Virus record (IMG/VR): IMGVR_UViG_3300033047_000016
Strand: one strand, 5' to 3'
DNA length: 64,000 bases
DNA from: a virus
This document shows, one piece after another, positions 1-22,566 of the stretch (position 1 is the stretch's first letter; every line of letters starts with the position of its first letter). The notes under the pieces are model-generated. The model saw nothing but the letters and a program-made list of their open reading frames with translations, had not been told where the DNA came from and did not search any database. The position numbers and the translations under genes are program-made.

Positions 1-1
1 T

Positions 2-406
2 GTTATCAAGCCGGGAAGCCTCGAAATTGGCACTGTCACTTATCAGGAATGTATCGACGTAACCGATGTAGATCACCCGGACAACGCTGCTTGGGACGCC
101 GGAGATATTGCCCGCAACAGCGTAGGGGATTACTCCTTGTTTTCGGTACACTTCTATGATGGCGATGAAGTATTCGTGTCGCCAGATGGTGAAGAGTCCG
201 TTCTTCGTGTCGTCATACCCATCGAGGAAGAAGAAGTAGCTGAGGAAACACTCACGTTTTTGCATGAGGCCACTCGGCAGGCGTTCACAGCCACACAGGT
301 CGTCAATATCGTTGATGATATCGGGCAGCGTGGCTTCCAGCGGGAATATGATATCCCACGCACGACTGTACAAGAATGGCTGAAAGCCATCCGAGCCGCC
401 GCGTAA
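2..406 (+). CDS. Hypothetical protein, 5'-truncated by window edge
   Basis: Frame is open from base 2 through the listed 137..406 ORF; followed by a hairpin at about 415-440. Confidence 0.7.
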   Translation, partial: VIKPGSLEIGTVTYQECIDVTDVDHPDNAAWDAGDIARNSVGDYSLFSVHFYDGDEVFVSPDGEESVLRVVIPIEEEEVAEETLTFLHEATRQAFTATQVVNIVDDIGQRGFQREYDIPRTTVQEWLKAIRAAA

Positions 407-459
407 CAAGATAGCCTCGCAGCACCATGTTGCGGGGCACCACCATCTAGGAGAAGAAA

Positions 460-876
460 ATGGGTTACTCATCCGACGGAATTTTGGTTTATGGCATCTT
501 GCTAGAGGGCGAAGACGGTGACGTTCCTGAGTTTTTCAAGCAGGTATTAACTGAAGAAGAACTGGACGACTACGGTGTCGATATGGACAAGTACATTGAC
601 ATCGTTTCAGACACCGAAGACGCGGAATACGCTGTTAGGAAAAAAGCTCACGATTCGTACCCAGTTGGTTTGTGTATGCACTGCTCTTACGACTATGCAA
701 TGTACATACTGGCGGTACCAAATACCGAAGTAACCGCCAGTAGAGGTTACCCACACGGATTCAAGGATGGGTTGCCAGAGGTTTCCCCAATGGCTGTTAG
801 CTTGTTCACTGCGTGGGCAAAAGAACACGATATTCAGGGTGAGCCTTGCTGGATTTTGTGTTCACTTGCGGGTTAA
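460..876 (+). CDS. Hypothetical protein
   Basis: 138 aa ORF, AGGAG RBS. Confidence 0.8.
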   Translation: MGYSSDGILVYGILLEGEDGDVPEFFKQVLTEEELDDYGVDMDKYIDIVSDTEDAEYAVRKKAHDSYPVGLCMHCSYDYAMYILAVPNTEVTASRGYPHGFKDGLPEVSPMAVSLFTAWAKEHDIQGEPCWILCSLAG

Positions 877-905
877 CACCACACGAATTATATCAGGAGA
901 AGAAA

Positions 906-1088
906 ATGGACCAGTTGCGCATGACCGTCATAGTTGACGGTAAAGAAGAGACACGCCCAGTGTCACACACACAGATCAACCCAATCACACGTATGTGGGA
1001 AGATCAGCCTGTTGTGAATTACGGGGAACTAATTTCACGTGACCAAAATGGTGTGGTCACCATCATAAAAGGGGTGCACAGCCAATGA
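906..1088 (+). CDS. Hypothetical protein
   Basis: AGGAG RBS before ATG 906; ATGA overlap with ligase. Confidence 0.65.
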   Translation: MDQLRMTVIVDGKEETRPVSHTQINPITRMWEDQPVVNYGELISRDQNGVVTIIKGVHSQ

Positions 1089-2089
1089 GCAAATTCCAAA
1101 AACTGACAAGCATTGAATCGTTTGCCCACGTCTACCGCCACCAGCAATATTTTGACACCCCGGCTGTTGTTCAGTACGGTGCAAAGATCAAATTGCATGG
1201 GTCAAACGCGGCTGTGCGTTTGGGCGGGGACGGTACAGTGGTAGCACAATCACGTTCGCGTGACATCTTCGTTGGTGATGATAACTACGGGTTTGCTGCT
1301 TGGGTCAAGGAGAACGAGGAAGCGTGGCGCATGCCTAGCACCGACAAGCTGCGTGCGATGGTCGGAGACGTTATTTACTACGGAGAATGGGGCGGATTGG
1401 GTATCCAAAAAGGGGATGCTGTGACCAAACTTGATGCCAAGTATTTCTTCGTCTTCGCCGTGCGTACAGGTGACAATTACATCACCACACCAGCCGACAT
1501 TGAGTTGACCATCCCAGACCTCGACAACATCATCGTAATTCCGTGGGACATCATCTTTGAAGAGTCGGTTGACTTTGGTAACGCTGATGAATGTGAATCA
1601 TTCGGAGATATGTTGAACGAACGTGTGAAAGATATCGAGGAACGCGACCCATTCATTCACGGAATCTTTGGCATCGACGCACCGGGGGAGGGCTGGGTTA
1701 TCAGCCCTGTCTGCAACCCCGGAAGTGATCCGCTGGACGGACAGCTAGACGTTGATTGGTACAATCACCTGACGTTCAAGGTCAAGGTTGAGGGTCACAA
1801 CGTTAACAAAGGGCCATCGGCTGCACGCGACATCGTTGTGCCAGAGGGTGTTTCGGAGTTCGTTGAAATGTTTGTCACCGAGGCGCGGTGCCAACAGGGC
1901 CTGTCTGAGGAGCTTGGTGGAAACGCCATTCCAGAGAAGACAGGGCATTTCCTCAAATGGGTAAACACGGATATCATCAAGGAATCTGTGGAGGAACTTT
2001 CAGATGCGGGGCTTGTTTGGAAAGATGTACAGCGTGGGGTTGCTGGCGCAGCCCGGACATGGTTCTTGGAAAAATGTAAGGAGATATGA
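1085..2089 (+). CDS. RNA ligase, Rnl2 family
   Basis: Nucleotidyltransferase motifs KLHGSN (I), YGEW (III), FFVFAV (IIIa), EGWV (IV), FKVK (V). Confidence 0.85.
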   Translation: MSKFQKLTSIESFAHVYRHQQYFDTPAVVQYGAKIKLHGSNAAVRLGGDGTVVAQSRSRDIFVGDDNYGFAAWVKENEEAWRMPSTDKLRAMVGDVIYYGEWGGLGIQKGDAVTKLDAKYFFVFAVRTGDNYITTPADIELTIPDLDNIIVIPWDIIFEESVDFGNADECESFGDMLNERVKDIEERDPFIHGIFGIDAPGEGWVISPVCNPGSDPLDGQLDVDWYNHLTFKVKVEGHNVNKGPSAARDIVVPEGVSEFVEMFVTEARCQQGLSEELGGNAIPEKTGHFLKWVNTDIIKESVEELSDAGLVWKDVQRGVAGAARTWFLEKCKEI

Positions 2090-2093
2090 AGTC

Positions 2094-2252
2094 ATGAAAA
2101 ACGAAAATAACACAAACACAGTGAATGAAGTGGTGACTAAGCCGCCGTCGCGGCAAGTTCGTCGGCAGATGCAGCGCGCCAAGGACAAGGCTGGTACACG
2201 GCACCTTAACGAGAGCGTCATGAGAAAGAATCAAAAGCGCGGAGCGCGCTGA
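2094..2252 (+). CDS. Small basic hypothetical protein
   Basis: Fills the gap between neighbours, TGATG overlap with next gene. Confidence 0.5.
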   Translation: MKNENNTNTVNEVVTKPPSRQVRRQMQRAKDKAGTRHLNESVMRKNQKRGAR

Positions 2253-2773
2253 TGTTCGAAGTGACAGTTACCCGTGACATGGTCGGGGAGTCATTCGTAA
2301 AGGCGCAAGAAATTGGTGTGTTGCACAACTCCATAGAAAAGGGGGAGGGCAATTTAATTGGCTGCATCGGCGAGTTTGTTGTTGCGCAGGCGCTTGACGC
2401 TGACGTAGATAACACGTTTGATTACGATCTTGTTAAAGACGGAAAGACCGTTGATGTAAAGACCAAGAAGTCTGGACCGAAACCAAAAGGTAATTACGAG
2501 GCGTCGGTTGCAGACTTCAACACCGCACAAAAATGTGACTATTATTTCTTTGTGAGGGTCACTCCGCGCATGCACAAAGCGTATGTACTGGGGTTTTATC
2601 CGAAGACAGCGTTCTACGCCGACAGTAAGTTTCACACGAAGGGAGAATACGACTTCTCCAACAACTTCAAATTCCACGCCGATTGCCACAACATACGACA
2701 TGATTTGTTGCTTGGCTGGGATGCAAAAACACCGGAAGAGCTAAGAAAAGCATGGCAGCATTTGACCGCATAA
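2252..2773 (+). CDS. PD-(D/E)xK family endonuclease
   Basis: GCIGE...FDYDL...VDVKTK restriction-endonuclease-like motif. Confidence 0.7.
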   Translation: MFEVTVTRDMVGESFVKAQEIGVLHNSIEKGEGNLIGCIGEFVVAQALDADVDNTFDYDLVKDGKTVDVKTKKSGPKPKGNYEASVADFNTAQKCDYYFFVRVTPRMHKAYVLGFYPKTAFYADSKFHTKGEYDFSNNFKFHADCHNIRHDLLLGWDAKTPEELRKAWQHLTA

Positions 2774-5646
2774 ACGGTGAATTCACCACACGATTTGCAG
2801 ATGGACGATCAGGGTGTAAAAAGCCGGATCGTTTCATGTTTAAAAGGAATGGATGGTCGTGGGACGTCAATACGAAGGGGTGGACCACACCAGACATTGA
2901 GAACGCACGTCCACTCATAAAGCACGCGGTCGGTGCCGCCAAAGAGCATCTGGTAGTGGCTGAGCGCGTGCGCGAGGCTATTGTAGCGGAATCTTGGGCC
3001 GAGGATACCGAAACAATCTTTCCGGCCCCTGACGGGGAGCATTACCTACCCTTTCAAAAGGCTGGGATAGAGTACGCCATAAAACGCAAACACACTCTGA
3101 TCGCTGACCCACCCGGTCTAGGTAAATCGCAACCAGTAGATGAGCCTGTGTTGACCCCGAATGGGTGGACAACCATGGGAGAGTTGCGTGTTGGGGATTT
3201 TGTGGTTGGGGTGGACGGGAGAAAAACCAAAGTAGTTGGAGTTTTTCCGCAAGGTATTTTAGATACATATCAGGTAAAGTTTTCTGACGGTGCGTCCACT
3301 TTCTGTAGCAATTCACACTTATGGGCTGTGGCAGATTCCAATAGACGTAAACGCACAAACGATTTTACTGTAAAACCTCTATCTGAAATATCTGATCGTG
3401 GATTGAAAGAAGGTACACGCAAAAAGTGGACTGTACCGGTTATGGGTCCTGTGGAATTTCCCGAGAGAAAGTTTGTGATACCCCCATATACATTGGGGGT
3501 GCTGCTGGGTGATGGGAGTTTACATCAATCCAGCCCATGTGTGTCAATCGCAAATTTTGAGTCAGAAATAAAAGATAGACTGGAAGCAGAGATTCTGCCG
3601 GGATACCGACTACACAGCGCCCGAAAAGCAGATAAAACTAATCGCTGTAAGCAGTATACAATAAGTCGCCCACGCTGTGGCTCATCTCCATCAACATATA
3701 TGACCGAATTACGGCGATTAAATCTGGCAGTTAAGGGTGATAAAAAAAGAATTCCAGCGGAATATTTAACAGCCTCAGCAGAACAACGGCTTGAGCTTTT
3801 GCGGGGTCTCATGGATTCTGATGGAAGTGCACGCCAAAACAGAATAACGTTCCATTCGTGCAATCCTTATCTGGCGGCGGACGTACAGCAGCTTGTGTGG
3901 TCTTTAGGAGGCATTGCCAGTGAGCGTACCTACGTGCGACACGATGGAAAGTCCGATGAAACGAGAATCAACGTAACGCTCGACACATGCCCGTTTCACT
4001 TGACTAGAAAAGCCACCGAATGGTCCCCAAATCGCAGGCACCACCGTGTCCGAAGGTTTATTGACTCTATTACCAAGGTAGGGAAGAGTCCTCACGTATG
4101 TATTTCTGTAGCTGCGGCTGACAACTTATACGTCACTAGAGATTATGTTGTGACACACAATACAATTCAGGCAATCGGAGTGCACAATGCAACAAAAGCC
4201 AAACGTGTTTTAGTGGTGTGCCCAGCGTCATTGAAAGTGAACTGGAAGCGGGAATGGGAAAAATGGGATGTGCATGGCCTTTCCGTAGGCATTGCACACT
4301 CAAAAACCAGAACAAAAACAGTAAAAGAAATAGTCGAAGGCGTGGAAGAAAAGTGGGTAAAGCGCTGGACTGAGCACGTGTGGCCTGACACAGATGTTGT
4401 GATGATAAATTACGACATGCTGGATGCGTTTAACGACGCCGTAAAAGATGTGTCGTGGGACTTGCTGATTTGTGATGAGGCGCATCTTTTAAAAACAAAG
4501 ACGGCACTGCGCACATTATGTGTGTTCGGCGGGGCACGAAAGGGTGCCAGAAAAAATGGAATACAAACCAGAAAGCCAAAGACCTATACTGCAATTGAAG
4601 CAACCAAGACACTGTTTCTGACCGGAACACCTATTCTATCCAAGCCGGTTGAGCTATGGAACCTTATTAGAATCTGTGATCGTCCCGGTCTCGGTAAGAA
4701 CTATGATGATTTTGTCTTCGACTTCTGCGGTGCATATTATGAAGGTGACCATTTAAATGTTATGGGAGCATCCAATTCCGACGAATTGAATCGGCTGATG
4801 CGTGAGAGATTTATGGTACGCAGAGACAAGCGCTCTGTATTAAAAGAATTGCCAGACAAGACTCGCGAATTGATAATGTTGCCGCAGGATAAATTAGAGA
4901 AGCCAGTTAAAAAAGAACTGTCTCGAATGGAATCTGCGCTGAATGTGTACGAAAGTATAATTGGAATAAGCGAAGAAGACCGGTCATTCCGATACATAAA
5001 GGCCATTGAATCTCTCACAGACAAGCTTGCAAAAGCACTCGAAGAACAAGACAGCGAAACTCCTAATTGGGATTTAGCTGTAAAGACAATGGAAGAACCT
5101 GATCAAATTTTGTTCACAGAAATAAGTCTGGCACGAGAAGAAGTTGCAATTGCAAAAGTTGGAATGGTGGTAGAACACATCAAGAAGCTGGTAGATTCCG
5201 AGGAGCCAGTGATTTGTTTTGCGTATCACAAGTCTGTGATATCGACAATAAAAGAACGCTTGGAGAAGGTAGGCATAAGCGTTGGTGTGGTCACAGGATC
5301 AGTGGCATCAAACAAGCGGCAGCAGGTCGTTGACGACTTTCAATCAGGTTCGTACGATGTGATCCTTGGAAACATAATCGCCATGGGTGTTGGCTTCACG
5401 CTAACGCGTGCCAGTTTCGTTGTGTTCGCTGAGTTGGATTGGGTGCCAGCACTCATCGAACAGGCTGAAGACAGGGCGTGGCGGTACGGCCAACTTAATG
5501 CTGTACTTGTCCAGCATCTTGTGGTAGATGGGTCCATCGAAGCACGGATGGCGATTGCGCTGTTGGACAAAATGGGAGTAATACATGACACACTGGATTA
5601 TCGCGATACCCCTTATCCTTATGACGACGATGTCAGCGATGGCTGA
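2752..5646 (+). CDS. SNF2/SF2-type DNA helicase precursor with intein
   Basis: PFQ Q-motif, ADPPGLGK[intein]T Walker A, DEAH, LTGTP, QAEDRAWRYGQ motif VI. Confidence 0.92.
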   Translation: MAAFDRINGEFTTRFADGRSGCKKPDRFMFKRNGWSWDVNTKGWTTPDIENARPLIKHAVGAAKEHLVVAERVREAIVAESWAEDTETIFPAPDGEHYLPFQKAGIEYAIKRKHTLIADPPGLGKSQPVDEPVLTPNGWTTMGELRVGDFVVGVDGRKTKVVGVFPQGILDTYQVKFSDGASTFCSNSHLWAVADSNRRKRTNDFTVKPLSEISDRGLKEGTRKKWTVPVMGPVEFPERKFVIPPYTLGVLLGDGSLHQSSPCVSIANFESEIKDRLEAEILPGYRLHSARKADKTNRCKQYTISRPRCGSSPSTYMTELRRLNLAVKGDKKRIPAEYLTASAEQRLELLRGLMDSDGSARQNRITFHSCNPYLAADVQQLVWSLGGIASERTYVRHDGKSDETRINVTLDTCPFHLTRKATEWSPNRRHHRVRRFIDSITKVGKSPHVCISVAAADNLYVTRDYVVTHNTIQAIGVHNATKAKRVLVVCPASLKVNWKREWEKWDVHGLSVGIAHSKTRTKTVKEIVEGVEEKWVKRWTEHVWPDTDVVMINYDMLDAFNDAVKDVSWDLLICDEAHLLKTKTALRTLCVFGGARKGARKNGIQTRKPKTYTAIEATKTLFLTGTPILSKPVELWNLIRICDRPGLGKNYDDFVFDFCGAYYEGDHLNVMGASNSDELNRLMRERFMVRRDKRSVLKELPDKTRELIMLPQDKLEKPVKKELSRMESALNVYESIIGISEEDRSFRYIKAIESLTDKLAKALEEQDSETPNWDLAVKTMEEPDQILFTEISLAREEVAIAKVGMVVEHIKKLVDSEEPVICFAYHKSVISTIKERLEKVGISVGVVTGSVASNKRQQVVDDFQSGSYDVILGNIIAMGVGFTLTRASFVVFAELDWVPALIEQAEDRAWRYGQLNAVLVQHLVVDGSIEARMAIALLDKMGVIHDTLDYRDTPYPYDDDVSDG
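3127..4161 (+). mobile_element. Intein (345 aa) with LAGLIDADG homing endonuclease
   Basis: Starts SQPVDEPVLTPNGW, ends YVVTHN followed by Thr+1; LGVLLGDGS and LRGLMDSDG blocks; removal restores GLGKT. Confidence 0.93.
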
Positions 5647-5941
5647 GACTCCGTGTCGAACGAATCACCGAGGTCAAGCCGTCTGTAAAGACGCCGCTGG
5701 TGACCAGTGGACCCAGCGAAAAGACCATCGAGACAGGACCATTTGGGTCAATCAAAGAACACATGAACGGGTTCGCGAGCGGGTGAACAACAACCGTGGC
5801 GTGGACTTCATCGCATCCAATGGCGCAACCGTTGGACGCACCACTAAGCGATCCGGGAATCGGACCCGCATTGAATCCAGCGGGGGTATTCTCGTGTGCC
5901 GACCTGATCCTAAAAGGCTCATACGCTGTCATAAAGAGTAA
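5585..5941 (+). CDS. Small putative exported protein
   Basis: Hydrophobic N-terminus ending AMA; cysteines; basic. Confidence 0.6.
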   Translation: MTHWIIAIPLILMTTMSAMAETPCRTNHRGQAVCKDAAGDQWTQRKDHRDRTIWVNQRTHERVRERVNNNRGVDFIASNGATVGRTTKRSGNRTRIESSGGILVCRPDPKRLIRCHKE

Positions 5942-5948
5942 TTACCTG

Positions 5949-5978
5949 TTGACACGTTGTAAAACACCTAGTACAAAG
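5949..5978 (+). promoter_or_regulatory. Putative sigma70-like promoter for HD/endonuclease/polymerase genes
   Basis: Intergenic TTGACA with TACAAA about 18 nt downstream; similar intergenic TTGACA near 9679, 12673, 16712, 19223. Confidence 0.55.
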
Positions 5979-6002
5979 CTATCACACAAATAAGGAAAAA
6001 GC

Positions 6003-6617
6003 ATGGAAAGCCCATGGATTTTAACGGCATCAGGCCGTAAGTACCACTATTTGAATAACGACCCGACTGAATTTCACGTACCAGACATGGCAGCATCGCT
6101 GTCGAGAATATGTCGGTACAACGGGCACCTGTCAGATCAATACGACGACGACATTTACAGCGTGGCACAACACAGTGTGTATGTGTACTGGCTGTTGGTG
6201 AAGGTCGGTGCCCCAAAGCGCGCACTGCCGTGGGCCATTGCTCATGATATGCCAGAAGCCTATTGGACTGATGTGCCAAGCCCTCTCAAATCCATTCTGC
6301 CGGAATACAAGCGCTTGGAGCACGGCGCTGGGGAGCTTATGCGCCACTATCTAGGCATTCCGCACGACGACGAAATTGAACGTGTTGTCAAGTGGGCTGA
6401 TATGCAGATTCTCTATGCCGAAAGTCAGGAGATAACCAGCATCCCATCGGAACTGTGGGATACTGGAATGAAAGCCGATTACACGCTACAGGAGATTGAC
6501 GAAAACTTCTGCCTGTGGCGTCCGAGATTGGCAAGGAAAATGTTCATGCAGGAGTACGACAAAGCAATGCAACACGCACACAAATCAGGAGGGCTGCAGT
6601 ATGCCAACGCATCTTAA
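6003..6617 (+). CDS. HD-domain 5'-deoxynucleotidase (YfbR/YfdR-like)
   Basis: CRYNGH, YSVAQHSV, HDMPEAY..DVPSPLK, VKWAD. Confidence 0.88.
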   Translation: MESPWILTASGRKYHYLNNDPTEFHVPDMAASLSRICRYNGHLSDQYDDDIYSVAQHSVYVYWLLVKVGAPKRALPWAIAHDMPEAYWTDVPSPLKSILPEYKRLEHGAGELMRHYLGIPHDDEIERVVKWADMQILYAESQEITSIPSELWDTGMKADYTLQEIDENFCLWRPRLARKMFMQEYDKAMQHAHKSGGLQYANAS

Positions 6618-7134
6618 TATGCGCTACGCGGAGATTGAATCTCTGTGGCCCGGAATCCAAGCATTCCAAGCCCTCGCCGACCAATACGGCGTGCCGGATA
6701 TTTTTGCTGACAACGGCGGAAAGGTTGTTCAACTTGCCGTTGCAACAGGTCTCGATATTGTGCCCGGACGAATGGGAGCAGACTACGCCGACCGCATGGG
6801 AAATGAATACGAGGTCAAGACGGTAAACACCGCCAAGAACGTTCGGGGTTTCACTACCAATCACCATCTAACCAAGAAGACGATTGGTAATTACCGCACG
6901 CGTCGGTGGGTGTTTGCAATGTACGACAACATCACGCTGGATGAAGCATACCTTGTAGAGTCAATAGAAATGGAATCAATTTTCATGAAGTGGGAGTTGG
7001 CACTTGGGGGAAAGAGGGACCACCTCAACAATCCAAAAATCCCCATTGACTTCGTCCGCCAAGTTGGTACGGTCATGTATATGAAAGACGTGGCCCCGGC
7101 ATGGATTTCTGGTAAGAAAATGGCGGTGGCGTGA
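6601..7134 (+). CDS. PvuII-like type II restriction endonuclease
   Basis: Colinear with R.PvuII as recalled: LWPGIQ, DIFADNGGK, PGRMGAD, EYEVK, GFTTNHH, NNPKIP; GGAGG RBS upstream. Confidence 0.9.
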   Translation: MPTHLNMRYAEIESLWPGIQAFQALADQYGVPDIFADNGGKVVQLAVATGLDIVPGRMGADYADRMGNEYEVKTVNTAKNVRGFTTNHHLTKKTIGNYRTRRWVFAMYDNITLDEAYLVESIEMESIFMKWELALGGKRDHLNNPKIPIDFVRQVGTVMYMKDVAPAWISGKKMAVA

Positions 7135-7433
7135 CACACACTAAATTTCTTGAAGCAATGGTCCTCGTCACGCTATTCTGCGTGGTGGGGGCGACAACGG
7201 CCTACGGAGAAGATGTAGACTTCTTCTGCAACAGTGCTACCGCCGCCGAGGCATCTGTGGACCCAGAAATACGAAAGCAACTAATTGAGACCACTACCTG
7301 TGGCTATTTTACACAGAGATATGGTTTCATGTCTAAAGGCACGCTGACACACGTAAAAGATGTTGACGGGACAGACAAGTCAGTCTATTTTGTTGACTAT
7401 GGAAATGGCACCTACACATACACGGTAAAATAA
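7131..7433 (+). CDS. Small putative exported protein
   Basis: Signal-peptide-like LVTLFCVVGATTAYG; overlaps both neighbours. Confidence 0.65.
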   Translation: MTHTKFLEAMVLVTLFCVVGATTAYGEDVDFFCNSATAAEASVDPEIRKQLIETTTCGYFTQRYGFMSKGTLTHVKDVDGTDKSVYFVDYGNGTYTYTVK

Positions 7434-9670
7434 TGCAATCAGCATTCGATCACATAATCTTCGACATTGAAACGAACGGGCTGCTCCCGGCGCACATTGA
7501 CCCGCCGTTCTGCATGGACCGTATTCATTGCCTGTCTATAAAAGACATAGAAACCGGAGAGCATCGCAGTTATGTGAACGACGATTTATTTCCTCTGAAT
7601 TCTCTGGTCCTTGATGCCCTGCGTGAGTTGGGCCACAATTACGTGCGTCCATTGTCTGAAGGTATTGAGTTATTGTCGAATGCCGTGACCTTGATCGGTC
7701 ACAACATAATTGACTTTGATCTACCAGCAATTGAAATGATCTATCCAGACTTTCAAACGGACGCGCGCATAATCGACACACTGGTTATGGTGCGCATGTG
7801 CTTTGCTGACATCAAAGAAAAAGACTTCAGGATGGCTGCACGTGGCACACTTGAGGGTAAGTTCATTGGTACGCAGGGTTTGGAAGCTTGGGGACAGCGG
7901 CTTGGTTTGGCCAAAGGCGATTACAAAAAAGATCGCGAATTAGAATTGAAGGCGCTACACAAAGAGCGCAGCCTAGAGCCGCCCACAAAAGAAGAACTGC
8001 ACCACTATGTGTGGGGCACGTGGAATGTGCCAATGCACGATTACATGGTTCTCGACGTGGACGTCAACGACAAATTGTGGATCAAGATTGACGAAACCAA
8101 TTGGTCGCGCGAGTCGATGCGTCTTGAGCACGAAATTCACGCACTTATGGTGCAGCAGGAACGCAACGGGTTCTTCTTTGATGAAGTCCGCGCACGCAAG
8201 CTTGGAGACAAGTTGCAGGCCGAATATGATATTTTTGCAGGCGAAGCAACCGACGAGATTGGACGCTGGTTCCGCCCATCACGTTGGCATTCTCAAGAAG
8301 AGGATGGCTCTGGAATTGATTTAGATCGCGGCGAGAATAAAAAACGCCGTTCGTGGGGCAACATCGACGTACCAAAGCGCACGATAAGCTACTCCAAATC
8401 GAATGCAAAACTAGATGGCGACTATCGAAAGATGCGCGCCAGTACTGTAAAAGACGTGCCATTCGTACGTGTGGAACTGCGCGACTTTAACCCCAATAGT
8501 CGCCAGCAGATTGTTGATCGGCTGTCACATCTTTATGGGTGGACACCGCAGGACTTCACCGAGAAAGGTAGCCCCAGAGTTGACGATGAGATTCTGCGTA
8601 ACTTAGTAGACGAGATACCGCTGGCAAGGGTGCTCGCTGAGTTGTTCTACTACAAAAAGCGTATAGGGATGGTTGTAGACGGAAAGAACGGCTGGTTGAA
8701 GCTCCTACGAAGCGACGGGCGTATTCATGGGCGAGTTAACGTCGGTGGCACTGTCACCGGTCGCGCTACGCACTCACGTCCAAATATCTCTCAGGTACCC
8801 GCCGTAAAAGTATTGGAGACGAAGGATTACAACAAGGGCCTAGATTGGATTGTCGAGCACAAGGATGCTGGGACATTCGTGGACGCCAGTTGGAGCGAGA
8901 AAAAGGGTGAATGGGCTATCTATGTTCGTGGGCGTAAAGGCGACCACGGGTGGGATTGCCGTGAGTTATTTACTGTTCCGGTTGGATATAAATTAGTTGG
9001 TTGTGACCTGTCCGGCATTGAATTCCGATGCCTTGCAAATCTGACATTCCAGTTCGATGATGGTGAACTTGTTGATATCGTTCTCAACGGGGATATCCAC
9101 CAGAGGAATGCAGACAGCGCCGGTATTTCGCGGTCCATCGCCAAGCGTCTTTTGTACGCAGCCATGTATGGAGGTGGGGACGGCAAGTTAGGATCAATCG
9201 TTGAGCCACTAGCTTCTGAAGGACGCCAGCGTTCACTAGGAAAGCAGTTGCGTGCCAAACTTATGGCAGCTATGCCGTCCTTGAACAAAGCGATCAAGGA
9301 GATTCATAAAGAAGCGCGTAAGAACGGCAACACTATTGCGGGCCTCGACGGACGCCGCCTTTATATTAGGGCCAAGCACGCCGCCTTGAATATGCGGTTG
9401 CAGTCAGATGGGGCTTTGATCGCCAAGAAATGGTGTCTCATGGTTGACGACGCCTTCTATGCGGAAGGCTGGGATCACGGCGTAGGTAAGGAATACGCGT
9501 TCTGTAGCTGGTCTCACGACGAGATTCAAATCTCAGTGCGTGAAGACTTGGCAGAACGCGCCGCCGAGATTATGGAACAGATGGCACCTGAAGCTGGCAA
9601 GTACTTCGGGTTCAACTGCCCTGTGGCGGCGGAGTCGAATATAGGTATGACGTGGGCTGAAACTCACTAA
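7433..9670 (+). CDS. polA: DNA polymerase family A, T7-like, with 3'-5' exonuclease
   Basis: DIETNG, HNIIDFD, TVTGR, DLSGIEFR (motif A), AKRLLYAAMYG (B), HDEIQ (C). Confidence 0.95.
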   Translation: MQSAFDHIIFDIETNGLLPAHIDPPFCMDRIHCLSIKDIETGEHRSYVNDDLFPLNSLVLDALRELGHNYVRPLSEGIELLSNAVTLIGHNIIDFDLPAIEMIYPDFQTDARIIDTLVMVRMCFADIKEKDFRMAARGTLEGKFIGTQGLEAWGQRLGLAKGDYKKDRELELKALHKERSLEPPTKEELHHYVWGTWNVPMHDYMVLDVDVNDKLWIKIDETNWSRESMRLEHEIHALMVQQERNGFFFDEVRARKLGDKLQAEYDIFAGEATDEIGRWFRPSRWHSQEEDGSGIDLDRGENKKRRSWGNIDVPKRTISYSKSNAKLDGDYRKMRASTVKDVPFVRVELRDFNPNSRQQIVDRLSHLYGWTPQDFTEKGSPRVDDEILRNLVDEIPLARVLAELFYYKKRIGMVVDGKNGWLKLLRSDGRIHGRVNVGGTVTGRATHSRPNISQVPAVKVLETKDYNKGLDWIVEHKDAGTFVDASWSEKKGEWAIYVRGRKGDHGWDCRELFTVPVGYKLVGCDLSGIEFRCLANLTFQFDDGELVDIVLNGDIHQRNADSAGISRSIAKRLLYAAMYGGGDGKLGSIVEPLASEGRQRSLGKQLRAKLMAAMPSLNKAIKEIHKEARKNGNTIAGLDGRRLYIRAKHAALNMRLQSDGALIAKKWCLMVDDAFYAEGWDHGVGKEYAFCSWSHDEIQISVREDLAERAAEIMEQMAPEAGKYFGFNCPVAAESNIGMTWAETH

Positions 9671-9728
9671 AATAACTCTTGACAAGGATTGAAGCTCTGA
9701 TATAAGGGCACTACTAAGGAAACGAATC

Positions 9729-10346
9729 ATGAACGTACTATTTTTTGACACAGAAACAACCGGGCTTACGAAGCCAAAGTTGGATCACTGCCACCCAGAC
9801 CAGCCAATGCCTGTTCAGTTAGGTATGAAGTTGGATGCTGCAAACCGTGCGGAAATGGGTGCCGTTAACTTCATGATCAAAACTCATGGACAATGGAAAG
9901 TAGACCCTAAAGCTGCGGAAATCACTGGCATCACAAATGCTCTGGCTGACGAGTTTGGGACTGAGCTTATTTCTGCATACGAGGTGTGGCTCGATTACGT
10001 CGCCACAGCCGATATCTTGGTTGCGCACAATGCCGCGTTCGATATTGTAGTAATGCGTCACGCAGGAAAAGTGTATGCGGACGAAACCGGCACCGAATAC
10101 CGCGATCCGTTTGAAGGGAAGAAAGTTATCTGCACGATGCTTGCCAGCATTGATCTGATCAAGGCCACGCCAAAGAGGCGCAGGCAGTGGAAGTGGCCAA
10201 AACTGGAAGAGTGTACACAGAAGCTGTTTGGGTACAAATCTGACGGAGCACACGATGCGCTAGTGGACGTCAGAGACACAGCCAGAGTATTTTATTACCT
10301 CATGGATACGGGAGTATTCGAACGTGAGCAATCTAAAACTAAATGA
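9729..10346 (+). CDS. DEDDh 3'-5' exonuclease (DnaQ-like)
   Basis: FDTETTG, AHNAAFD, AHDALVD. Confidence 0.9.
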   Translation: MNVLFFDTETTGLTKPKLDHCHPDQPMPVQLGMKLDAANRAEMGAVNFMIKTHGQWKVDPKAAEITGITNALADEFGTELISAYEVWLDYVATADILVAHNAAFDIVVMRHAGKVYADETGTEYRDPFEGKKVICTMLASIDLIKATPKRRRQWKWPKLEECTQKLFGYKSDGAHDALVDVRDTARVFYYLMDTGVFEREQSKTK

Positions 10347-10358
10347 AGGTATTGTCCA

Positions 10359-11498
10359 GTGACTAAGACATATTTTGATGAACTGATCGCCAATGGTGTG
10401 CCGGATTCAATCCCACAAGATGGTTTTGCGTTCGAAGACCTTTACGACGAACACATTGCCAACAACCAAAAGACGTGGAAACAAGATCGTCGGTTGACAG
10501 TCGGTGCGTCTGAGTGCTTTGGGTGTATCCGTAAGACGTGGTTCACCAAGCGCGGACACGAGTTCGGCGTCAAGACAGACCCGGATCACGAAGACAATTG
10601 GGGTGCTATGGAACGTGGCAACATGATAGAAAACCACTTCATTGTCCCGGCAATGGAGAGTGGTCTGCGCCGACGTGGTATGGACTTGATCATGGCAGGA
10701 GACGGACAAGACACCATCATTGATGGCATCCATTCCGCGACACTTGACGGACTCGTTATCGACGCCCCTTCCGATGTTTTGGCATTCTACGATGTGCCTG
10801 ACATTAAGTCCGATTGTTTCAATCTTGAAATGAAATCGTTTGACCCGCGCCTGACGCTGGAACACGAAAAGCCGGTTCACCGTGGGCAGGTGCAAATGCA
10901 GATGGGATTGGTTCGTGACACCACGGACTACAAGCCAGAGTTCTCGGCTCTGATGTACATCAACGCATCTTGGTTGACAGACATGCGCTTGTTCCCTATT
11001 CCGTACGACGACGCGGTTTACAATATTGGGCGCGCCCGCAACGAAAAGGTTTTTGCAGAAGACACAGCCAACGCGTTTGCCACAGAAGGCAAGCTGGATG
11101 GCCTATGCAAGTACTGCAATTATCAGGACGCCTGCAACGAAATAACGCGGGAGCGGGTACCTTCAGCAAGAAAAGCGTTGAACAAGCAAGAAATCAGCGA
11201 ACAGGACCAGAAATTCATTGACAGCCTTACGCCCCTTGTGTTACAACGAAATACCCTCAGTAAAGTTGGTAAAGAAACAAAGGTCGCCCTTGAGGAAATC
11301 AACGAGCAAATCAGGCAAGCGTTGATCGCCAAGGGAGAAAGTCGCGTAGTTGGCGGAGATTGGAAAGTCACATACACATCACAGGCTGGACGAAAAACCC
11401 TGTCGAAAGCATTAATGATTGCTGACGGCGTTGACCCCGATAGATATATGCAGGAAGGCGGCAGCTTTGAAAAGCTGACTGTTACGGCAGTACAATGA
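10359..11498 (+). CDS. PD-(D/E)xK exonuclease (Cas4/YqaJ-like)
   Basis: GASE..GCIRK, ATLDG, LEMKS, QVQMQM, CKYC.YQDAC. Confidence 0.75.
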   Translation: MTKTYFDELIANGVPDSIPQDGFAFEDLYDEHIANNQKTWKQDRRLTVGASECFGCIRKTWFTKRGHEFGVKTDPDHEDNWGAMERGNMIENHFIVPAMESGLRRRGMDLIMAGDGQDTIIDGIHSATLDGLVIDAPSDVLAFYDVPDIKSDCFNLEMKSFDPRLTLEHEKPVHRGQVQMQMGLVRDTTDYKPEFSALMYINASWLTDMRLFPIPYDDAVYNIGRARNEKVFAEDTANAFATEGKLDGLCKYCNYQDACNEITRERVPSARKALNKQEISEQDQKFIDSLTPLVLQRNTLSKVGKETKVALEEINEQIRQALIAKGESRVVGGDWKVTYTSQAGRKTLSKALMIADGVDPDRYMQEGGSFEKLTVTAVQ

Positions 11499-11770
11499 AC
11501 GCAAAAGAACAAACATACATCGACACTATCTTTGCCAAGGCAACAGTGTCAATGCAAAAGGCCAAGAAAAAATTCCCCCAGCCAAATTATGTCGCGCTAA
11601 AAGTGGCAGAAGAAGCTGGTGAAGTTGTCCGTGCGGCAGTACATTACGCCGAGGATCGCCTAACTTGGGAAGAGCTTGAGGGTGAGGTGGTCCAAACCAT
11701 CGCCATGCTCTTGCGCTTACTGACTGAGGGTGATCAGGTCAATGGGGTGATCCCACCACATCTTAAATAG
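11495..11770 (+). CDS. MazG-like nucleotide pyrophosphohydrolase
   Basis: KVAEEAGEV ... ELEGEVVQ. Confidence 0.65.
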   Translation: MNAKEQTYIDTIFAKATVSMQKAKKKFPQPNYVALKVAEEAGEVVRAAVHYAEDRLTWEELEGEVVQTIAMLLRLLTEGDQVNGVIPPHLK

Positions 11771-11869
11771 AATTCCGCATGAGCGGATTGTCGTCACACT
11801 TGTCGGTGGGTGTGTCGGGTTAATTTAAGCACCGTCAAACAAGAGACCAAAAAACAAGGAAACCATACG

Positions 11870-12676
11870 ATGAGTAATTCACTGGTAGATCAGTCTGCAC
11901 AGAACGCAGTAATGAACCACGAAGGCGCTGACCCGTTCAGCGCAGGCGCGGAAGCCGGAATGTCCACCTACGTTAAGTTTCGTGGGGCCAGCGGCGAGTA
12001 TCTCGCAGGTTCGGACGAAGACGAAATCGCCCACGGTACTAAGTTCATCGCGAACATCTTTGAAGCGCGTTGGATTTGGTCGTTCTGGTGGGATGGCAAG
12101 GTGATGGGAACGGTTGATGAACTCCTTCGGGAACAACCGTTGCTGAATAAGCACATGCCAGACTTCTTGCCGGATGATCCTGAAGGCGACATTGATATGA
12201 CGCTGGACGAAATCCGCAAGATGCAGAAGGAAGACCCGGCTAATTTCCGGGACGGGTGGAGCATCCAAGCTTCGTTCGAAATGCTGTCCATGGACGGCAA
12301 CGACGAGGAATACACCATGCGCTTGGGTGGAGGAGTCAGCATTCGCGGCTTTGATGCACTGCGTAAGGCGTTTGGTCGTCGTTACAAGATCGAGGCCGGT
12401 AAAGACCCGGTTATCGAACTGACGACTAACAAGTACAAGTCGAAAGTGAAGGGTGTTGGTACTCGCCACGCCCCTGTGATGAAGATTGTTGACTGGCTGT
12501 CGCCGGAAGACATGATGGCCGCGACTGGCGAAAATGATGCAGACTATGATGATGATGTGGCGGACGCTCCGGCACAAGAGTCAGAAAAGGTAGCGGATAC
12601 GCCAGCAACGGAGAAAAGTGAGGCCCCCACAGGCCGCGCCGGACGCCGGGGTGCGCGCACCAAGAATCTTGGTTGA
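11870..12676 (+). CDS. Putative ssDNA-binding protein
   Basis: Replication context, acidic low-complexity C-terminal region, AAGGA RBS. Confidence 0.55.
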   Translation: MSNSLVDQSAQNAVMNHEGADPFSAGAEAGMSTYVKFRGASGEYLAGSDEDEIAHGTKFIANIFEARWIWSFWWDGKVMGTVDELLREQPLLNKHMPDFLPDDPEGDIDMTLDEIRKMQKEDPANFRDGWSIQASFEMLSMDGNDEEYTMRLGGGVSIRGFDALRKAFGRRYKIEAGKDPVIELTTNKYKSKVKGVGTRHAPVMKIVDWLSPEDMMAATGENDADYDDDVADAPAQESEKVADTPATEKSEAPTGRAGRRGARTKNLG

Positions 12677-12695
12677 CACGTAGATTCTAATGAAA

Positions 12696-12729
12696 TAAGG
12701 TAAGCCCATCCCGACATGGGCTTACCTTA
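12696..12729. promoter_or_regulatory. Perfect 14-bp hairpin with CCCGAC loop
   Basis: TAAGGTAAGCCCAT-CCCGAC-ATGGGCTTACCTTA, intergenic. Confidence 0.6.
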
Positions 12730-12751
12730 ATCACATCACAAGGAGATAACT

Positions 12752-13066
12752 ATGTTTATTACACCAAAGACCGTGGCCCAAGCAATCGCGCCATTTGAGA
12801 AGATCAAGACCAACTTGAAGATTGTTCTGGATGCACAGCGTGCACGGAAGGCTAGTGCGGAAAGTCGTATCAAGACCGCCCGCGCAACCGTTAAGCAGGT
12901 CGAGAACACCGAGAATGCAACAATCAAGTCCGCCGTGGAAGAAGAACTCCGCGCCGCAGCCTTGATCGCAAATCTCGAAAAGTTGTTCAGTGCTGACGCT
13001 CCCGTCAATGTTGATGCCATGTCGCCATCCAAAAAGGCCGACGCCGGACACAAACTGGAAAGCTAA
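12752..13066 (+). CDS. Hypothetical coiled-coil protein
   Basis: AAGGAG RBS; Ala/Lys/Glu-rich. Confidence 0.75.
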   Translation: MFITPKTVAQAIAPFEKIKTNLKIVLDAQRARKASAESRIKTARATVKQVENTENATIKSAVEEELRAAALIANLEKLFSADAPVNVDAMSPSKKADAGHKLES

Positions 13067-13070
13067 GCAA

Positions 13071-14462
13071 ATGGGCATTACGCTTACAGATCATCAGTGG
13101 GCCGCTGTGAAGCGGGCCGCTGATTGGTATGAGAATGCCAGTCAGCACTACGAACCGAGTTATGATCGGTTCTTCGGAGACACAACAGAAGATAGTTCAG
13201 TCGTTGGCCAGTCTTTTGTGTTCGCAGGATATGCCGGATCGGGTAAATCAACCTGTGTTGGCACAATGATCGACCACCTGAAATTGACCGAAGAACAGGT
13301 CATGTACATGGCACCGACAGGCAAGGCGGCGAAAGTCTTGACCGGTAAGCTGCGTGCTGATGGGTGGAACCAACCGGCTACGACAATCCACAAAGCTATT
13401 TATATGCCGCGTGGAGCCAAGGCTGACGTTATCCAAAAGGATTTGGAAGCAGCAGAAATGGCACTCGAAACGCGCCGTGACGCCGACAGTGATGCTGACG
13501 ACAGATTCGAGGCTATGTCAGATCGAGAGCTTGAAGTGCGTGTGGCAGAACTTGAAAATGCACTGCGTGAAGCAATGGATTCTGAGGGACCATCATTCGC
13601 CCTCAAGCGCCCAGAGGATATACCTCCGGGAATCAAGCTATTCGTTGTTGATGAAGCGTCAATGGTAGGCACAGAAGTGGCCAACGATCTTCTACGATTC
13701 AACGTCCCTGTGCTGGCTATCGGCGACCCCGGACAGTTGCCGCCCGTGGCAGACGAGTGGGGTTTTGCCATGGAAGAACCAGACGTTTTCCTGACAGAAA
13801 TTCATCGGCAAGCTGCTGACAATCCGATAATTCGGCTGGCGACGCTGGCGCGAAAGGGTGAGTTGTTGCGCCCCGGTGACTACGGTGATGGTGTGAAGGT
13901 CGTGAAGAGGCAAGACGACGACGTTACCCTAAACATGGATCGTGATGCCATGATACTTGTTGGCACACACAAAAAGCGGTGGATGATCACCAAGAAAATT
14001 CGGGCGGCTTTAGGTATCACTGCCACCGGCCCGATGGCTGGTGAACCAATCTTGGTGAACAAGAACTCTCGCCAATTCCCATCACTGGTAAACGGTACCA
14101 TCCTCATGAACACGACTGATCACGGAGACTTGATCGGCGGAAACACTCGTATTAAACTGGACCTTTTGGACCCAGAGGCGGAGAACCTTCCGTACGGATT
14201 GTGGGGCGCGCAGTGCTTCTTTGAAGAGCACTTGTTCCGCAAGCGCAACAGCTATAGTGGGTCACCACAAGAAGTGTTTCGCGCTAAGGTATCGTGTGAG
14301 CAAATGGATTGGGGCCACGTGCTGACGGTCCACAAGTCGCAGGGATCGGAATGGGACGACGTTGTCGTGCACGACGAAAGTGGTGTGTTCAGGGATCAAG
14401 GGGCGCGGTGGCTGTATACTGGAATCACGCGTGCGGCAAAGCAGCTAACGGTGGTGATATGA
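13071..14462 (+). CDS. RecD/Dda-like SF1B helicase
   Basis: GYAGSGKS, APTGKAA, TIHK, VDEASMV, GDPGQLPPV, HRQ, TVHKSQGSEW, YTGITRA. Confidence 0.92.
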   Translation: MGITLTDHQWAAVKRAADWYENASQHYEPSYDRFFGDTTEDSSVVGQSFVFAGYAGSGKSTCVGTMIDHLKLTEEQVMYMAPTGKAAKVLTGKLRADGWNQPATTIHKAIYMPRGAKADVIQKDLEAAEMALETRRDADSDADDRFEAMSDRELEVRVAELENALREAMDSEGPSFALKRPEDIPPGIKLFVVDEASMVGTEVANDLLRFNVPVLAIGDPGQLPPVADEWGFAMEEPDVFLTEIHRQAADNPIIRLATLARKGELLRPGDYGDGVKVVKRQDDDVTLNMDRDAMILVGTHKKRWMITKKIRAALGITATGPMAGEPILVNKNSRQFPSLVNGTILMNTTDHGDLIGGNTRIKLDLLDPEAENLPYGLWGAQCFFEEHLFRKRNSYSGSPQEVFRAKVSCEQMDWGHVLTVHKSQGSEWDDVVVHDESGVFRDQGARWLYTGITRAAKQLTVVI

Positions 14463-14662
14463 TACAAGAAGAAGACGTTGAATATATTCGCAAGAATACA
14501 GACATGCTGGGAACGGTATTAAGTGTTGACTCCGATGATTTGGCTGTATACATTCAAGACCTAAGTGAACTGGTACTGAAAATGGCCGCACAAATTAAAG
14601 AACAGCAAGCGAAACTAACATCGCTTGAGAACCGCCTATGGATGGCAATGAACGAAGGTTAA
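14459..14662 (+). CDS. Hypothetical protein
   Basis: ATGA overlap with helicase stop. Confidence 0.65.
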   Translation: MIQEEDVEYIRKNTDMLGTVLSVDSDDLAVYIQDLSELVLKMAAQIKEQQAKLTSLENRLWMAMNEG

Positions 14663-14664
14663 CT

Positions 14665-15348
14665 ATGACGACACCTATTGTAGTGGCATTCACTGGGAAG
14701 CGCGGTTCTGGTAAATCCGAAGCGGCGCGAGTTCTGGTAGAGAAACTTGGTTTCCGTGAACTTAAATTTGCGGACCAATTGAAGAACATGCTTCGCGCCA
14801 TGTACCAGACATGTGGCGTTGATGTTAACACGGTCGAACGCAAGATCGAGGGCGACCTAAAAGAGGTTCCGTGTGAATGGCTTATGGGGAAGACTCCACG
14901 CTATGCCATGCAAACACTTGGCACTGAATGGCGCAACATGATCAACACACAGTTGTGGTCAGAAATGTTCAGGAAGGCTGTTCTGTCTGGTAATCTTGGA
15001 GACAGGATCGTTTGTTCTGATTATCGCTTCGAGCACGAAGGGGTGATTCTAGATGAGCTTGGTGCCGTCAAATATCGCATCGTTCGCCCGACCGCTGACG
15101 CGGTCTCAGATAAAGCATCACAGCACGCATCTGAAACGGAGCTTGATAATATCCCTACAGACTTCGACATCATAAATGACAGAAGTATCGGTGATCTACA
15201 AGTATCCGTGCTGGAACTAGTCATGGATGGAATGAAAATTAGTGGTATCAATGTGTTTCCAACACGTTACCCAGAGGGTGGGTGCATGTCCAAACCACTA
15301 GACGAAGACTGGTTTAAACACAATCATCAAACAGTTCGGATAGACTGA
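14665..15348 (+). CDS. Deoxynucleoside monophosphate kinase
   Basis: GKRGSGKS, FADQLK, TPRYAMQTLGTEW, SDYRFEHE, HASE. Confidence 0.9.
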   Translation: MTTPIVVAFTGKRGSGKSEAARVLVEKLGFRELKFADQLKNMLRAMYQTCGVDVNTVERKIEGDLKEVPCEWLMGKTPRYAMQTLGTEWRNMINTQLWSEMFRKAVLSGNLGDRIVCSDYRFEHEGVILDELGAVKYRIVRPTADAVSDKASQHASETELDNIPTDFDIINDRSIGDLQVSVLELVMDGMKISGINVFPTRYPEGGCMSKPLDEDWFKHNHQTVRID

Positions 15349-15824
15349 TGTACCGAAACGACTCGATAACTGCTACCCAGATCGAAGACGCTCTATTCAA
15401 GAGACACGACAAAGATATGTGTTTTCGCGAATTACGCCTGTCGTCTGGGTTTGCAAATCAGAGTCGTGTTGATTTCTTGGCGCTGAACGTCGCCCCTTCT
15501 ACAGGCAATAAGGTAGATGCGTACGAGATTAAAATCTCTCGCGCCGACTTTCGCCGGGATTCCTTCATCAAACAGCGCGGCGCTAGACTGTTTTCTGATC
15601 GGTTCTGGTACATCGCCCCGGTTGATATAATCCCTCGCGACGAGATTCCAGATTGGGCTGGATTGCTTGAGATTGACTGGCACTGTTACAAATATACCAG
15701 TTCCAAACCTTTCTTAAGAATTAAAGAGGTGATTTCTGCGCCTAAGCGTGATAAGGACATCCCAGCATGGGGCCTTGTTGTGTCAATGGTACGCAACGCA
15801 GTGAAGGAGAGTAATCGTGAATGA
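15348..15824 (+). CDS. MmcB-like PD-(D/E)xK nuclease
   Basis: RVDFLA...YEIKISRADF..D...FWYIAP...EIPDWAGL. Confidence 0.75.
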   Translation: MYRNDSITATQIEDALFKRHDKDMCFRELRLSSGFANQSRVDFLALNVAPSTGNKVDAYEIKISRADFRRDSFIKQRGARLFSDRFWYIAPVDIIPRDEIPDWAGLLEIDWHCYKYTSSKPFLRIKEVISAPKRDKDIPAWGLVVSMVRNAVKESNRE

Positions 15825-16068
15825 TGCGGAATTCAGCATAGCCGGAGAGCTTAGAGAGTGGCGTAAGCACGTATGCCGGTCTGATGGAACATACGTGCTA
15901 TGGGGCTTCATTTACGACGACGTTCGTAACAGATTTCCAGATGGTCAGTGGGTGCACACCTCCCGCATTGATAATATTGTTGGGGACTTGGCCTACACAT
16001 TTACTGGATCGGTCTACCGATTGGTCGGAGATAAGGCAGGAGAGGACGTTAACATATGGGCATCCTGA
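15817..16068 (+). CDS. Hypothetical phage protein
   Basis: GFIYDD.RNRFPDG..VHTS; RBS and overlaps. Confidence 0.7.
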   Translation: MNDAEFSIAGELREWRKHVCRSDGTYVLWGFIYDDVRNRFPDGQWVHTSRIDNIVGDLAYTFTGSVYRLVGDKAGEDVNIWAS

Positions 16069-16406
16069 AATTAGCTGCACTGTTGTTTGTTGGGGCATGC
16101 GCGTCAGCGCCTGCCTACGCCGGAAATGATCAATTGATACACTTCATCTGTGAGACACCAGACGAAGTTATTCCAGTGATCCACATGGTTGAAGGTGGTG
16201 ACCTTGTATATGGAATCACCGATCTACCCGGATCGTGTCAGTGGGCCAGAGACGTATATCCAGAAATGCACGCCCGCGTGGGTTCGATTGGAAAGTTATT
16301 TGAAAGCGTCCGTCTGGATAATGGCGACCGTGTGTGGGTCGGAGAAGTTACCATGCCTAATGGCAAGGTCCATTACTCGGCAGGATATTACAATTTAGTG
16401 TCTTAG
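16056..16406 (+). CDS. Small putative exported protein
   Basis: Signal peptide LKLAALLFVGACASAPAYA. Confidence 0.7.
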   Translation: MGILKLAALLFVGACASAPAYAGNDQLIHFICETPDEVIPVIHMVEGGDLVYGITDLPGSCQWARDVYPEMHARVGSIGKLFESVRLDNGDRVWVGEVTMPNGKVHYSAGYYNLVS

Positions 16407-16415
16407 GGGATACAC

Positions 16416-16670
16416 ATGATCGAGAGATTGCAGAGAGAGATACGCGAACGCGAAGAGCTTATTGCGAAGATTAGAAAAGAATGTGCCCACCCGGAGTCCG
16501 CCGTTGATATAGAGCCTACTTCGGTGCGCCACAGTGTATATGAAGACAGCGATGATGGATTCATTGGCGGATTTGTTGAAAAGACTCTGGAGGGCGAGCG
16601 GCACCATTGTGGCCTGTGTGGCAGCATCTGGACCATGGTGGATGGGGCGGTATGGACCAGAATGTGGTAA
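16416..16670 (+). CDS. Hypothetical Zn-ribbon protein
   Basis: CAH...CGLC. Confidence 0.65.
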   Translation: MIERLQREIREREELIAKIRKECAHPESAVDIEPTSVRHSVYEDSDDGFIGGFVEKTLEGERHHCGLCGSIWTMVDGAVWTRMW

Positions 16671-16804
16671 CCGGACAAATAACCGGCAACAAACATCGGC
16701 AAAAATAGCTATTGACATCATTAAGCCTTTGTGCGAAAACATTAATACAGAAAACAAAGTCGGCAACGAACCGGCCAAACAACCGGCAAAATAAGTGGCA
16801 AACC
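16669..16804 (+). repeat. Seven degenerate YCGGCAA-type repeats around a TTGACA element
   Basis: Copies near 16669, 16681, 16694, 16758, 16769, 16781, 16794. Confidence 0.7.
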
Positions 16805-16808
16805 AGAT

Positions 16809-18639: not shown

Positions 18640-18640
18640 A

Positions 18641-22557: not shown

Positions 22558-22566
22558 GATACTATC

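Follow-up and report, generated by a model that had tools for sequence, protein, structure and literature searches.

A putative methylase-free PvuII-like nuclease of DSS3P8-like roseophages and the clade-wide avoidance of its probable site

When a phage carries a restriction endonuclease but no methylase, does the absence of the enzyme's sites from its genome tell us what the enzyme cuts? This question is raised by a 64,000-bp stretch of viral DNA (IMG/VR record IMGVR_UViG_3300033047_000016, 49.2% G+C; the whole stretch is referred to as the window), which sits on a 144,372-bp ENA metagenomic scaffold and encodes a homologue of the restriction endonuclease R.PvuII. The original prediction, made from the sequence, held that this enzyme has relaxed its specificity to SAGCTS (CAGCTG, GAGCTC, GAGCTG and CAGCTC) and that the phage has purged these words from its own genome. 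We favour a different reading, with a probability of roughly 0.6: the gene would encode an active, methylase-free CAGCTG nuclease of roseophages, and the absence of sites would be an avoidance shared by the whole clade and not caused by the enzyme. The more striking claim of a SAGCTS-specific enzyme that shaped its own genome is not supported. The features on which the argument turns are the following.

1..64000: the whole window, in which SAGCTS and a range of further restriction-type words are missing when compared with Markov and codon-shuffle expectations.
6601..7134, + strand: gene of a PvuII-family endonuclease of 177 aa, identified through PF09225, the PDB PvuII chains and 96 homologues.
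6587..6592, + strand: AGGAGG Shine-Dalgarno sequence, 7 nt upstream of the ATG at 6601, from reading of the sequence.

The open reading frame at 6601-7134 matched the Pfam family PF09225 (Endonuc-PvuII) with an E-value of 3.1e-39 and 134.9 bits (cut-off 25) over profile positions 6-155 of 155. It aligned end to end with the structures 1pvi and 1eyu of R.PvuII (E = 8e-37). R.PvuII of Proteus (1pvi, 1eyu, 3ksk) thus belongs to the same fold family, shares the catalytic triad and is about 50% identical over the full length, as judged by eye; going by this alignment, the fold of the phage protein is fixed by the solved structure. The catalytic residues D61, E71 and K73 correspond to D58, E68 and K70 of R.PvuII, and D37 corresponds to D34. 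The recognition strand reads GFTTNHHL, and N143-N144-P-K146 match N140, N141 and K143. The motifs on which the assignment to the PvuII family had been based, the catalytic D...ExK in GAD...EYEVK, DIFADNGGK, TTNHH and NNPKIP, were all found in the protein. The catalytic D, E and K are unchanged in 96 phage and 86 bacterial homologues. Among the residues that we take to contact DNA in PvuII (D34, S81-T82-H83-H84-H85 and N140-N141-K143), the equivalents of D34, T82, H84, H85, N140, N141 and K143 are kept in the window enzyme and are invariant in the 96 phage-clade homologues, down to 52% identity; essentially all of these carry GF[ST]TNHH and NNPK. The window enzyme differs from R.PvuII by H83 to N, S81 to T, Q33 to A, N57 to A and E55 to M. 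The H83 to N change is found in 90 of the 96 phage homologues, while 95% of the bacterial homologues have H. The start codon at 6601 is backed by the homologue consensus MPTHLN... Compared to three orthologues, dN/dS was 0.03-0.07 with saturated synonymous sites, and therefore the protein is clearly under selection.

To place the phage, backbone relatives were picked with the family A DNA polymerase as a marker. The polymerase of the window is 64-67% identical (tblastn) to those of six cultured phages, all of ~146-150 kb: Roseobacter phage DSS3P8, Ruegeria phages V10 and RpAliso, Phaeobacter phage MD18, Rhodobacter phage RcXuper and DSS3_MAL1. The window belongs to the DSS3P8-like roseophages, siphoviruses of Rhodobacteraceae with genomes of ~145-150 kb. 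A megablast of 7 kb against a phage collection gave no match, and relatives were found through proteins only. In five of the six cultured phages (DSS3P8, where it is gp084, V10, MD18, RcXuper and DSS3_MAL1) the PvuII-like gene lies between an HD hydrolase and the polymerase, and the same placement was seen in many metagenomic contigs. In GenBank, the gene is labelled "type-2 restriction enzyme PvuII" or "restriction endonuclease" in three cultured phages. Our literature search found no paper that discusses it, and the MD18 paper is silent on both restriction sites and the nuclease.

As had been noted, no methylase is encoded in the window. The Pfam scan of 71 window gene products revealed no methyltransferase family, the amino-methyltransferase motif IV occurs in no window product, and the nuclease has neither a methylase nor a controller gene linked to it in the window. 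The same holds for the annotated surroundings of the syntenic gene in five cultured relatives, including DSS3P8, DSS3_MAL1, RcXuper and MD18. Since the locus lacks a linked methylase or controller, it is not a PvuII restriction-modification system. In contrast to R.PvuII, the window enzyme has no adjacent N4-methylcytosine (m4C) methylase or C protein, is phage-borne and lies inside a replication operon.

A split restriction-modification system, with the methylase elsewhere in the phage, would have a candidate in a small protein of 209-210 aa with the methyltransferase motifs EPCAGDG (motif I) and TNPPW (motif IV). It matches phrog_799 (E = 7e-35) and is conserved in DSS3P8, in RpAliso and in G003, the complete 139.5-kb metagenomic genome IMGVR_UViG_3300028844_004840:

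L004:13103-13732: EPCAGDG...TNPPW protein, DSS3P8 gp015.
L007:9230-9862: EPCAGDG...TNPPW protein, RpAliso_15.
G003 26473-27135: EPCAGDG...TNPPW protein.

DSS3P8 gp015 is annotated as hypothetical and has no Pfam match. In the relatives the protein is encoded ~60 kb from the nuclease gene, which by synteny would be just past the right end of the window, and it occurs with or without the nuclease, as RpAliso has it and no nuclease. Moreover, these genomes have no CAGCTG left to protect, and NPPW is typical of N6-adenine methyltransferases, while the chemistry of M.PvuII is m4C. All this makes a split system highly improbable.

Site counts were made in the window and 15 relatives, and are given below as observed/expected; GAGCTG and CAGCTC are called hybrid words. 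The window has 174 AGCT cores by exact count, and CAGCTG, GAGCTC, GAGCTG and CAGCTC each occur 0 times, while the remaining twelve NAGCTN words have 4-27 copies each. This agrees with the earlier reading by eye of about 170 cores and no SAGCTS. The expected number of SAGCTS sites is 53.9 in a first-order and ~43 in a third-order Markov model. It is 53.2 +/- 6.7 when synonymous codons are shuffled within each of the 73 called genes, which keeps the amino acids and per-gene codon usage; the minimum in 300 shuffles was 31. The absence of SAGCTS is therefore far beyond chance. SAGCTS is also missing from the 3.4 kb that precede the window on the scaffold, and CAGCTG is absent from the combined 67.4 kb, where ~16-21 sites are expected.

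However, SAGCTS is only one of many words that are missing. The window lacks CCWGG (0/100), RGATCY (0/47) and GRGCYC (0/44), a count of zero was obtained for 19 of the 64 six-base palindromes, and asymmetric words are lost as well, namely GATGAC (0/36), GAGATC (0/25) and GAGATG/CATCTC (1/30). For GATGAC, GAGATC and GAGATG we know of no enzyme. We considered GAGMTS (GAGCTS plus GAGATS) as one avoided motif and rejected it, as GAGATC and GAGATG vary independently of GAGCTG in relatives. Passive inheritance of site absence was also rejected: the window and even its closest relative have diverged to saturation at synonymous sites, so the absence must be maintained by selection. The sole CTGCAG of the window (1/16) is at 6594-6599, just behind the ribosome-binding site of the nuclease gene and ahead of its start codon. 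ATGCAT (0/25) and ATCGAT (0/17) are missing, yet ATTAAT is normal (14/17), a partial fit to the degenerate palindromic restriction specificity ATNNAT that was recently described in Caulobacter strains (PMC11945714).

The complete genome of DSS3P8 has 36 near-absent hexamer classes, and the list resembles that of the window. Across 17 genomes and contigs we found a constant avoided core of CCWGG, RGATCY, CGATCG, GCCGGC, CGGCCG, CTCGAG, CAGCTG and GAGCTC. On top of this core come lineage-specific losses, which include the asymmetric words CTGAAG, CTCTTC, CTCCTC, CTCCAG, GAATGC and GATGAC, the first five of which are presumably Type IIS/IIG sites. The loss of the non-palindromic GAGCTG and CAGCTC had been taken as an argument against generic avoidance. 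Because asymmetric words are lost lineage by lineage, such losses are ordinary in this clade and the argument does not hold. CTGAAG is over-represented in the window (47/28) but missing from most relatives, with 0 in RcXuper, G003 and the metagenomic relatives G002, G001, G004, L019 and L031. The sets of avoided words turn over quickly between lineages.

If the enzyme were specific for SAGCTS, the genomes that encode it, and only those, should be without SAGCTS. This was not observed on either side. Among gene carriers, the hybrid words are plentiful in DSS3P8 (113/102), DSS3_MAL1 (62/29), RcXuper (75/33) and MD18 (61/26), which have 0 CAGCTG and 0-2 GAGCTC; with G003 included, these carriers have 34-113 hybrid copies. 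CAGCTG is missing nearly throughout: it is at 0 in the complete genome of DSS3P8, where 52 are expected, and at 0 in every gene-carrying genome or contig apart from one site in G003, with 4-52 expected. It had been proposed that the change from STHHH to TTNHH in the recognition strand relaxed the reading of the outer base. The TTNHH strand is common to the clade, and since DSS3P8, DSS3_MAL1, RcXuper and MD18 combine it with hybrid words at or above expectation, TTNHH cannot mean SAGCTS.

Relatives without the gene show the same loss. In RpAliso, no PF09225 match was found in 149 kb (the positive control worked) and the HD hydrolase abuts the polymerase directly; CAGCTG is at 0/43 and GAGCTC at 0/75, with hybrids at 234/114. 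G006 and G008, metagenomic contigs of 29-32 kb whose polymerases are 67% and 63% identical to that of the window, have no PvuII-like gene at the syntenic site or elsewhere on the contig. G006 has CAGCTG at 0/7, GAGCTC at 0/7 and hybrids at 0/14, and in G008 these values are 0/7, 0/8 and 1/15. The pattern extends to a complete phiCbK-like Caulobacter phage of 223,720 bp (G009; IMGVR_UViG_2595698871_000001, loci L110-L121) with no PvuII-family gene: CAGCTG 0/69, GAGCTC 0/116 and hybrids 1/180, a total of 1 SAGCTS site compared to ~365 expected, while the reversed control word has 512 copies. Further words lost from this phage are CCGCGG (0/306), CCCGGG (0/192), GAATGC (0/117) and CACACG (1/150). 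The original prediction had set equal depletion in gene-less relatives beforehand as evidence against itself, and equal depletion is what we found.

Because gene-less relatives show the same loss, the avoidance is not caused by the enzyme. The missing sites are a general restriction-site avoidance and not a read-out of what this enzyme cuts, and the loss of hybrid words in the lineage of the window is an independent avoidance trait. On the basis of homology, the target is most likely the canonical CAGCTG. One part of the earlier proposal thus stands, as a CAGCTG cutter would be harmless to a genome with 0 CAGCTG; the SAGCTS specificity attached to it is not supported.

How such a gene might be kept is suggested by its neighbourhood.

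2752..5646, + strand: SNF2-family helicase with a LAGLIDADG intein (Pfam SNF2-rel_dom, LAGLIDADG_3, Helicase_C).
6003..6617, + strand: HD-domain deoxyribonucleoside-5'-monophosphate (dNMP) phosphatase (phrog_318, E = 3.4e-47; weak Pfam YfbR-like match).
7131..7433, + strand: 100-aa protein with a hydrophobic signal-like N-terminal segment and a GTG start, from the list of open reading frames.
7433..9670, + strand: T7-like family A DNA polymerase (PF00476, tblastn).

The conserved block order is SNF2 - HD - (nuclease) - polymerase, with SNF2 as the upstream member. The end of the HD gene overlaps the start of the nuclease gene by 17 nt, and the same HD neighbour is found in DSS3P8, RcXuper and RpAliso. 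Genes for nucleotide salvage are nearby, encoding dNMP phosphatase, dNMP kinase, ThyX and dUTPase. We propose that the nuclease is an accessory gene of a replication and nucleotide-metabolism module made up of the SNF2 helicase, the HD phosphatase, the nuclease and the DNA polymerase. Since gene-less relatives are equally free of sites, an actively maintained, clade-wide avoidance of restriction-type words probably came first; a bare restriction enzyme could then be kept, as it would do no harm to a genome without CAGCTG. We infer that during infection the active enzyme would cut unmethylated host DNA and so feed the adjacent nucleotide-salvage enzymes, and/or cut the DNA of co-infecting phages and plasmids. 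Such a role fits the place of the gene among nucleotide-salvage and replication genes.

Several observations weigh against this reading of an active CAGCTG nuclease in a genome that avoids CAGCTG for other reasons. The lack of a methylase was established for the 64 kb of the window and that of SAGCTS for 67 kb of the 144-kb scaffold, and either could lie in the remaining ~77 kb. Both activity and specificity are predictions from homology. The gene-carrying G003 has one CAGCTG (1/26), at 32,528, which an efficient cutter of unmethylated CAGCTG should not tolerate; G003 also avoids CCWGG and RGATCY less strongly than other members of the clade. Among 400 other sampled alphaproteobacterial genomes, we found 0 with a PvuII-family gene; unrelated isoschizomers or strain-variable systems may be what keeps CAGCTG out of the gene-less relatives. 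At sites that are near-invariant in the 86 bacterial homologues, the phage enzymes carry H83 to N, N57 to A/P, E55 to T/M/Q/L, and Q33 to S/A or N35 to A, and these substitutions may have shifted specificity or activity.

The same substitutions could mean that the protein was repurposed for replication or recombination, for example to nick DNA, to act on particular structures or to bind DNA, or that it is only weakly active. Such a role would suit a gene of the replication operon that is translationally coupled to the one for the HD phosphatase and lies shortly before that of the polymerase; the dispensability of the gene in RpAliso, G006 and G008 and the site tolerated by G003 would also agree with it. 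On the other hand, the 96 homologues show no change in the catalytic triad or in most base-contact residues, the low dN/dS argues for a maintained function of this protein, and gene-carrying genomes have at most one CAGCTG. We regard repurposing as unlikely.

A last point against a plain CAGCTG specificity comes from the loop around D34, which divides the phage enzymes into two types. Type A, with [A/S]-D-N, comprises the window and loci L016-L023, L025 and L031; type B, with Q-D-A, includes the cultured phages. In 89 bacterial homologues the loop is invariably Q-D-N, so that Q33 or N35 has been altered in the phages. All ten type-A loci are without or nearly without hybrid words, with 2 observed compared to ~90 expected, and in G002, taken as a whole contig, hybrids are at 0/36. 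This is also what a type-A enzyme that cuts SAGCTS, and itself selects for the loss of all four words, would predict. Avoidance of GRGCYC could explain the loss of GAGCTC in type-B phages and in the window; it was rejected as a general explanation, as it fails in type-A relatives with GAGCCC. Since GAGCCC is present in several type-A loci, SAGCTS is the simplest single motif there.

SAGCTS is also a real Type II m4C specificity, that of M.Ble402III from Beggiatoa leptomitiformis (PMC4675945), and is the exact word set missing from the window. However, only the methylase and its motif have been reported, and this gammaproteobacterium is not a known host of these phages. In Beggiatoa's bacterial order we found five PvuII-family genes, all with the canonical Q-D-N loop, none of which could be assigned to Ble402III. 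Against a relaxed type-A enzyme, the same words are lost without the gene in G006, G008 and G009, and with a type-B enzyme in L002/G010 (one phage, ~25 kb, SAGCTS 0). The type-A carriers G001 and G004 keep 3 and 1 hybrid sites, respectively, and the TTNHH residues that were invoked for relaxation also occur in phages full of hybrids. Moreover, N141 and the strand at residues 81-82, which we take to read the outer base pair in the PvuII-DNA complex, are unchanged apart from S81 to T, and the altered D34 loop presumably lies above the base pairs at the centre. Types A and B follow the phage lineages, which leaves the correlation with the weight of about one evolutionary event. Presence or absence of the gene and of hybrid avoidance was seen in all combinations except a type-A enzyme with hybrids at expected frequency. 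We therefore consider a SAGCTS-cutting type-A enzyme quite unlikely. GATGAC and GAGATC are both absent from L002/G010 as well, despite the different enzyme type, and the two phages may share a host restriction repertoire. A bolder version would make the type-A branch (Q33 to A/S, H83 to N) a SAGCTS weapon against host and rival DNA, with phages that share the host purging the words even when they lack the gene. If true, a phage-encoded restriction enzyme would drive site avoidance in other phages through mixed infections; we give this little credence.

The GTG start of the 100-aa protein at 7131..7433 overlaps the stop of the nuclease gene by 4 nt, and the protein has no Pfam or PHROG match. 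A homologous open reading frame with a CGYF motif lies between HD and polymerase in the gene-less relative L084, and thus the protein is not a dedicated partner of the nuclease. On the forward strand, a promoter scan gave no convincing candidate immediately ahead of the HD gene. The SNF2 helicase has 964 aa in the window, compared to 612 aa in L016, where the intein is missing, and ~606 aa in DSS3P8. In G006, the slot between HD and polymerase (L079:8874-9998, + strand) encodes a 374-aa protein in which the putative calcineurin-type metallophosphoesterase motifs GDxxHxDD, GNHD and GHxHH were recognised by eye; possibly the slot is a variable cassette. Two further nuclease-type genes were noted in the replication module of the window.

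15348-15824, + strand: MmcB-like PD-(D/E)XK protein (PF06319).
16809-17447, + strand: HNH endonuclease (PF01844).

Viral nucleases that degrade host DNA while the viral DNA is exempt are known from T4, with endonucleases II and IV and hydroxymethylcytosine (hmC) DNA, and from the restriction-modification enzymes of chloroviruses. The proposed role of the window nuclease in destroying host DNA and recycling nucleotides would be similar. In these viruses self-protection comes from base modification or methylation, whereas in the phage of the window it would come from sequence avoidance alone. The closest concept appears to be PacI, a solitary endonuclease without a methylase whose producer is protected by the absence of the site from its own genome (PMC3488263); here the arrangement would be phage-borne and conserved in a clade. 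Like PacI, the window nuclease has no linked methylase and its presumed site is absent from the DNA that was read. PacI, however, belongs to the HNH enzymes and comes from a bacterium whose base composition makes the AT-rich 8-bp site rare. In the phages the word is 6 bp long, a genome would be expected to have 16-52 copies of it, and it is removed by selection that acts on gene-less relatives too.

For this clade, a caution follows: since the loss recurs in relatives that lack the nuclease, even an extreme loss of words cannot be taken for the footprint of an enzyme encoded in the same genome. Unrelated large phages of Alphaproteobacteria also avoid SAGCTS almost absolutely (1 site in G009), and we know of no host enzyme responsible for it. 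The lineage-specific losses of GATGAC, GAGATC and GAGATG may point to uncharacterised host restriction specificities. The nuclease itself would be a bare Type IIP enzyme, conserved under strong purifying selection across a clade of large marine and freshwater phages. If it acts as proposed, it would be an unusual case of a bacterial defence enzyme turned into an offensive or salvage tool of phages, in which the distinction between self and non-self would rest on sequence avoidance only and not on modification.

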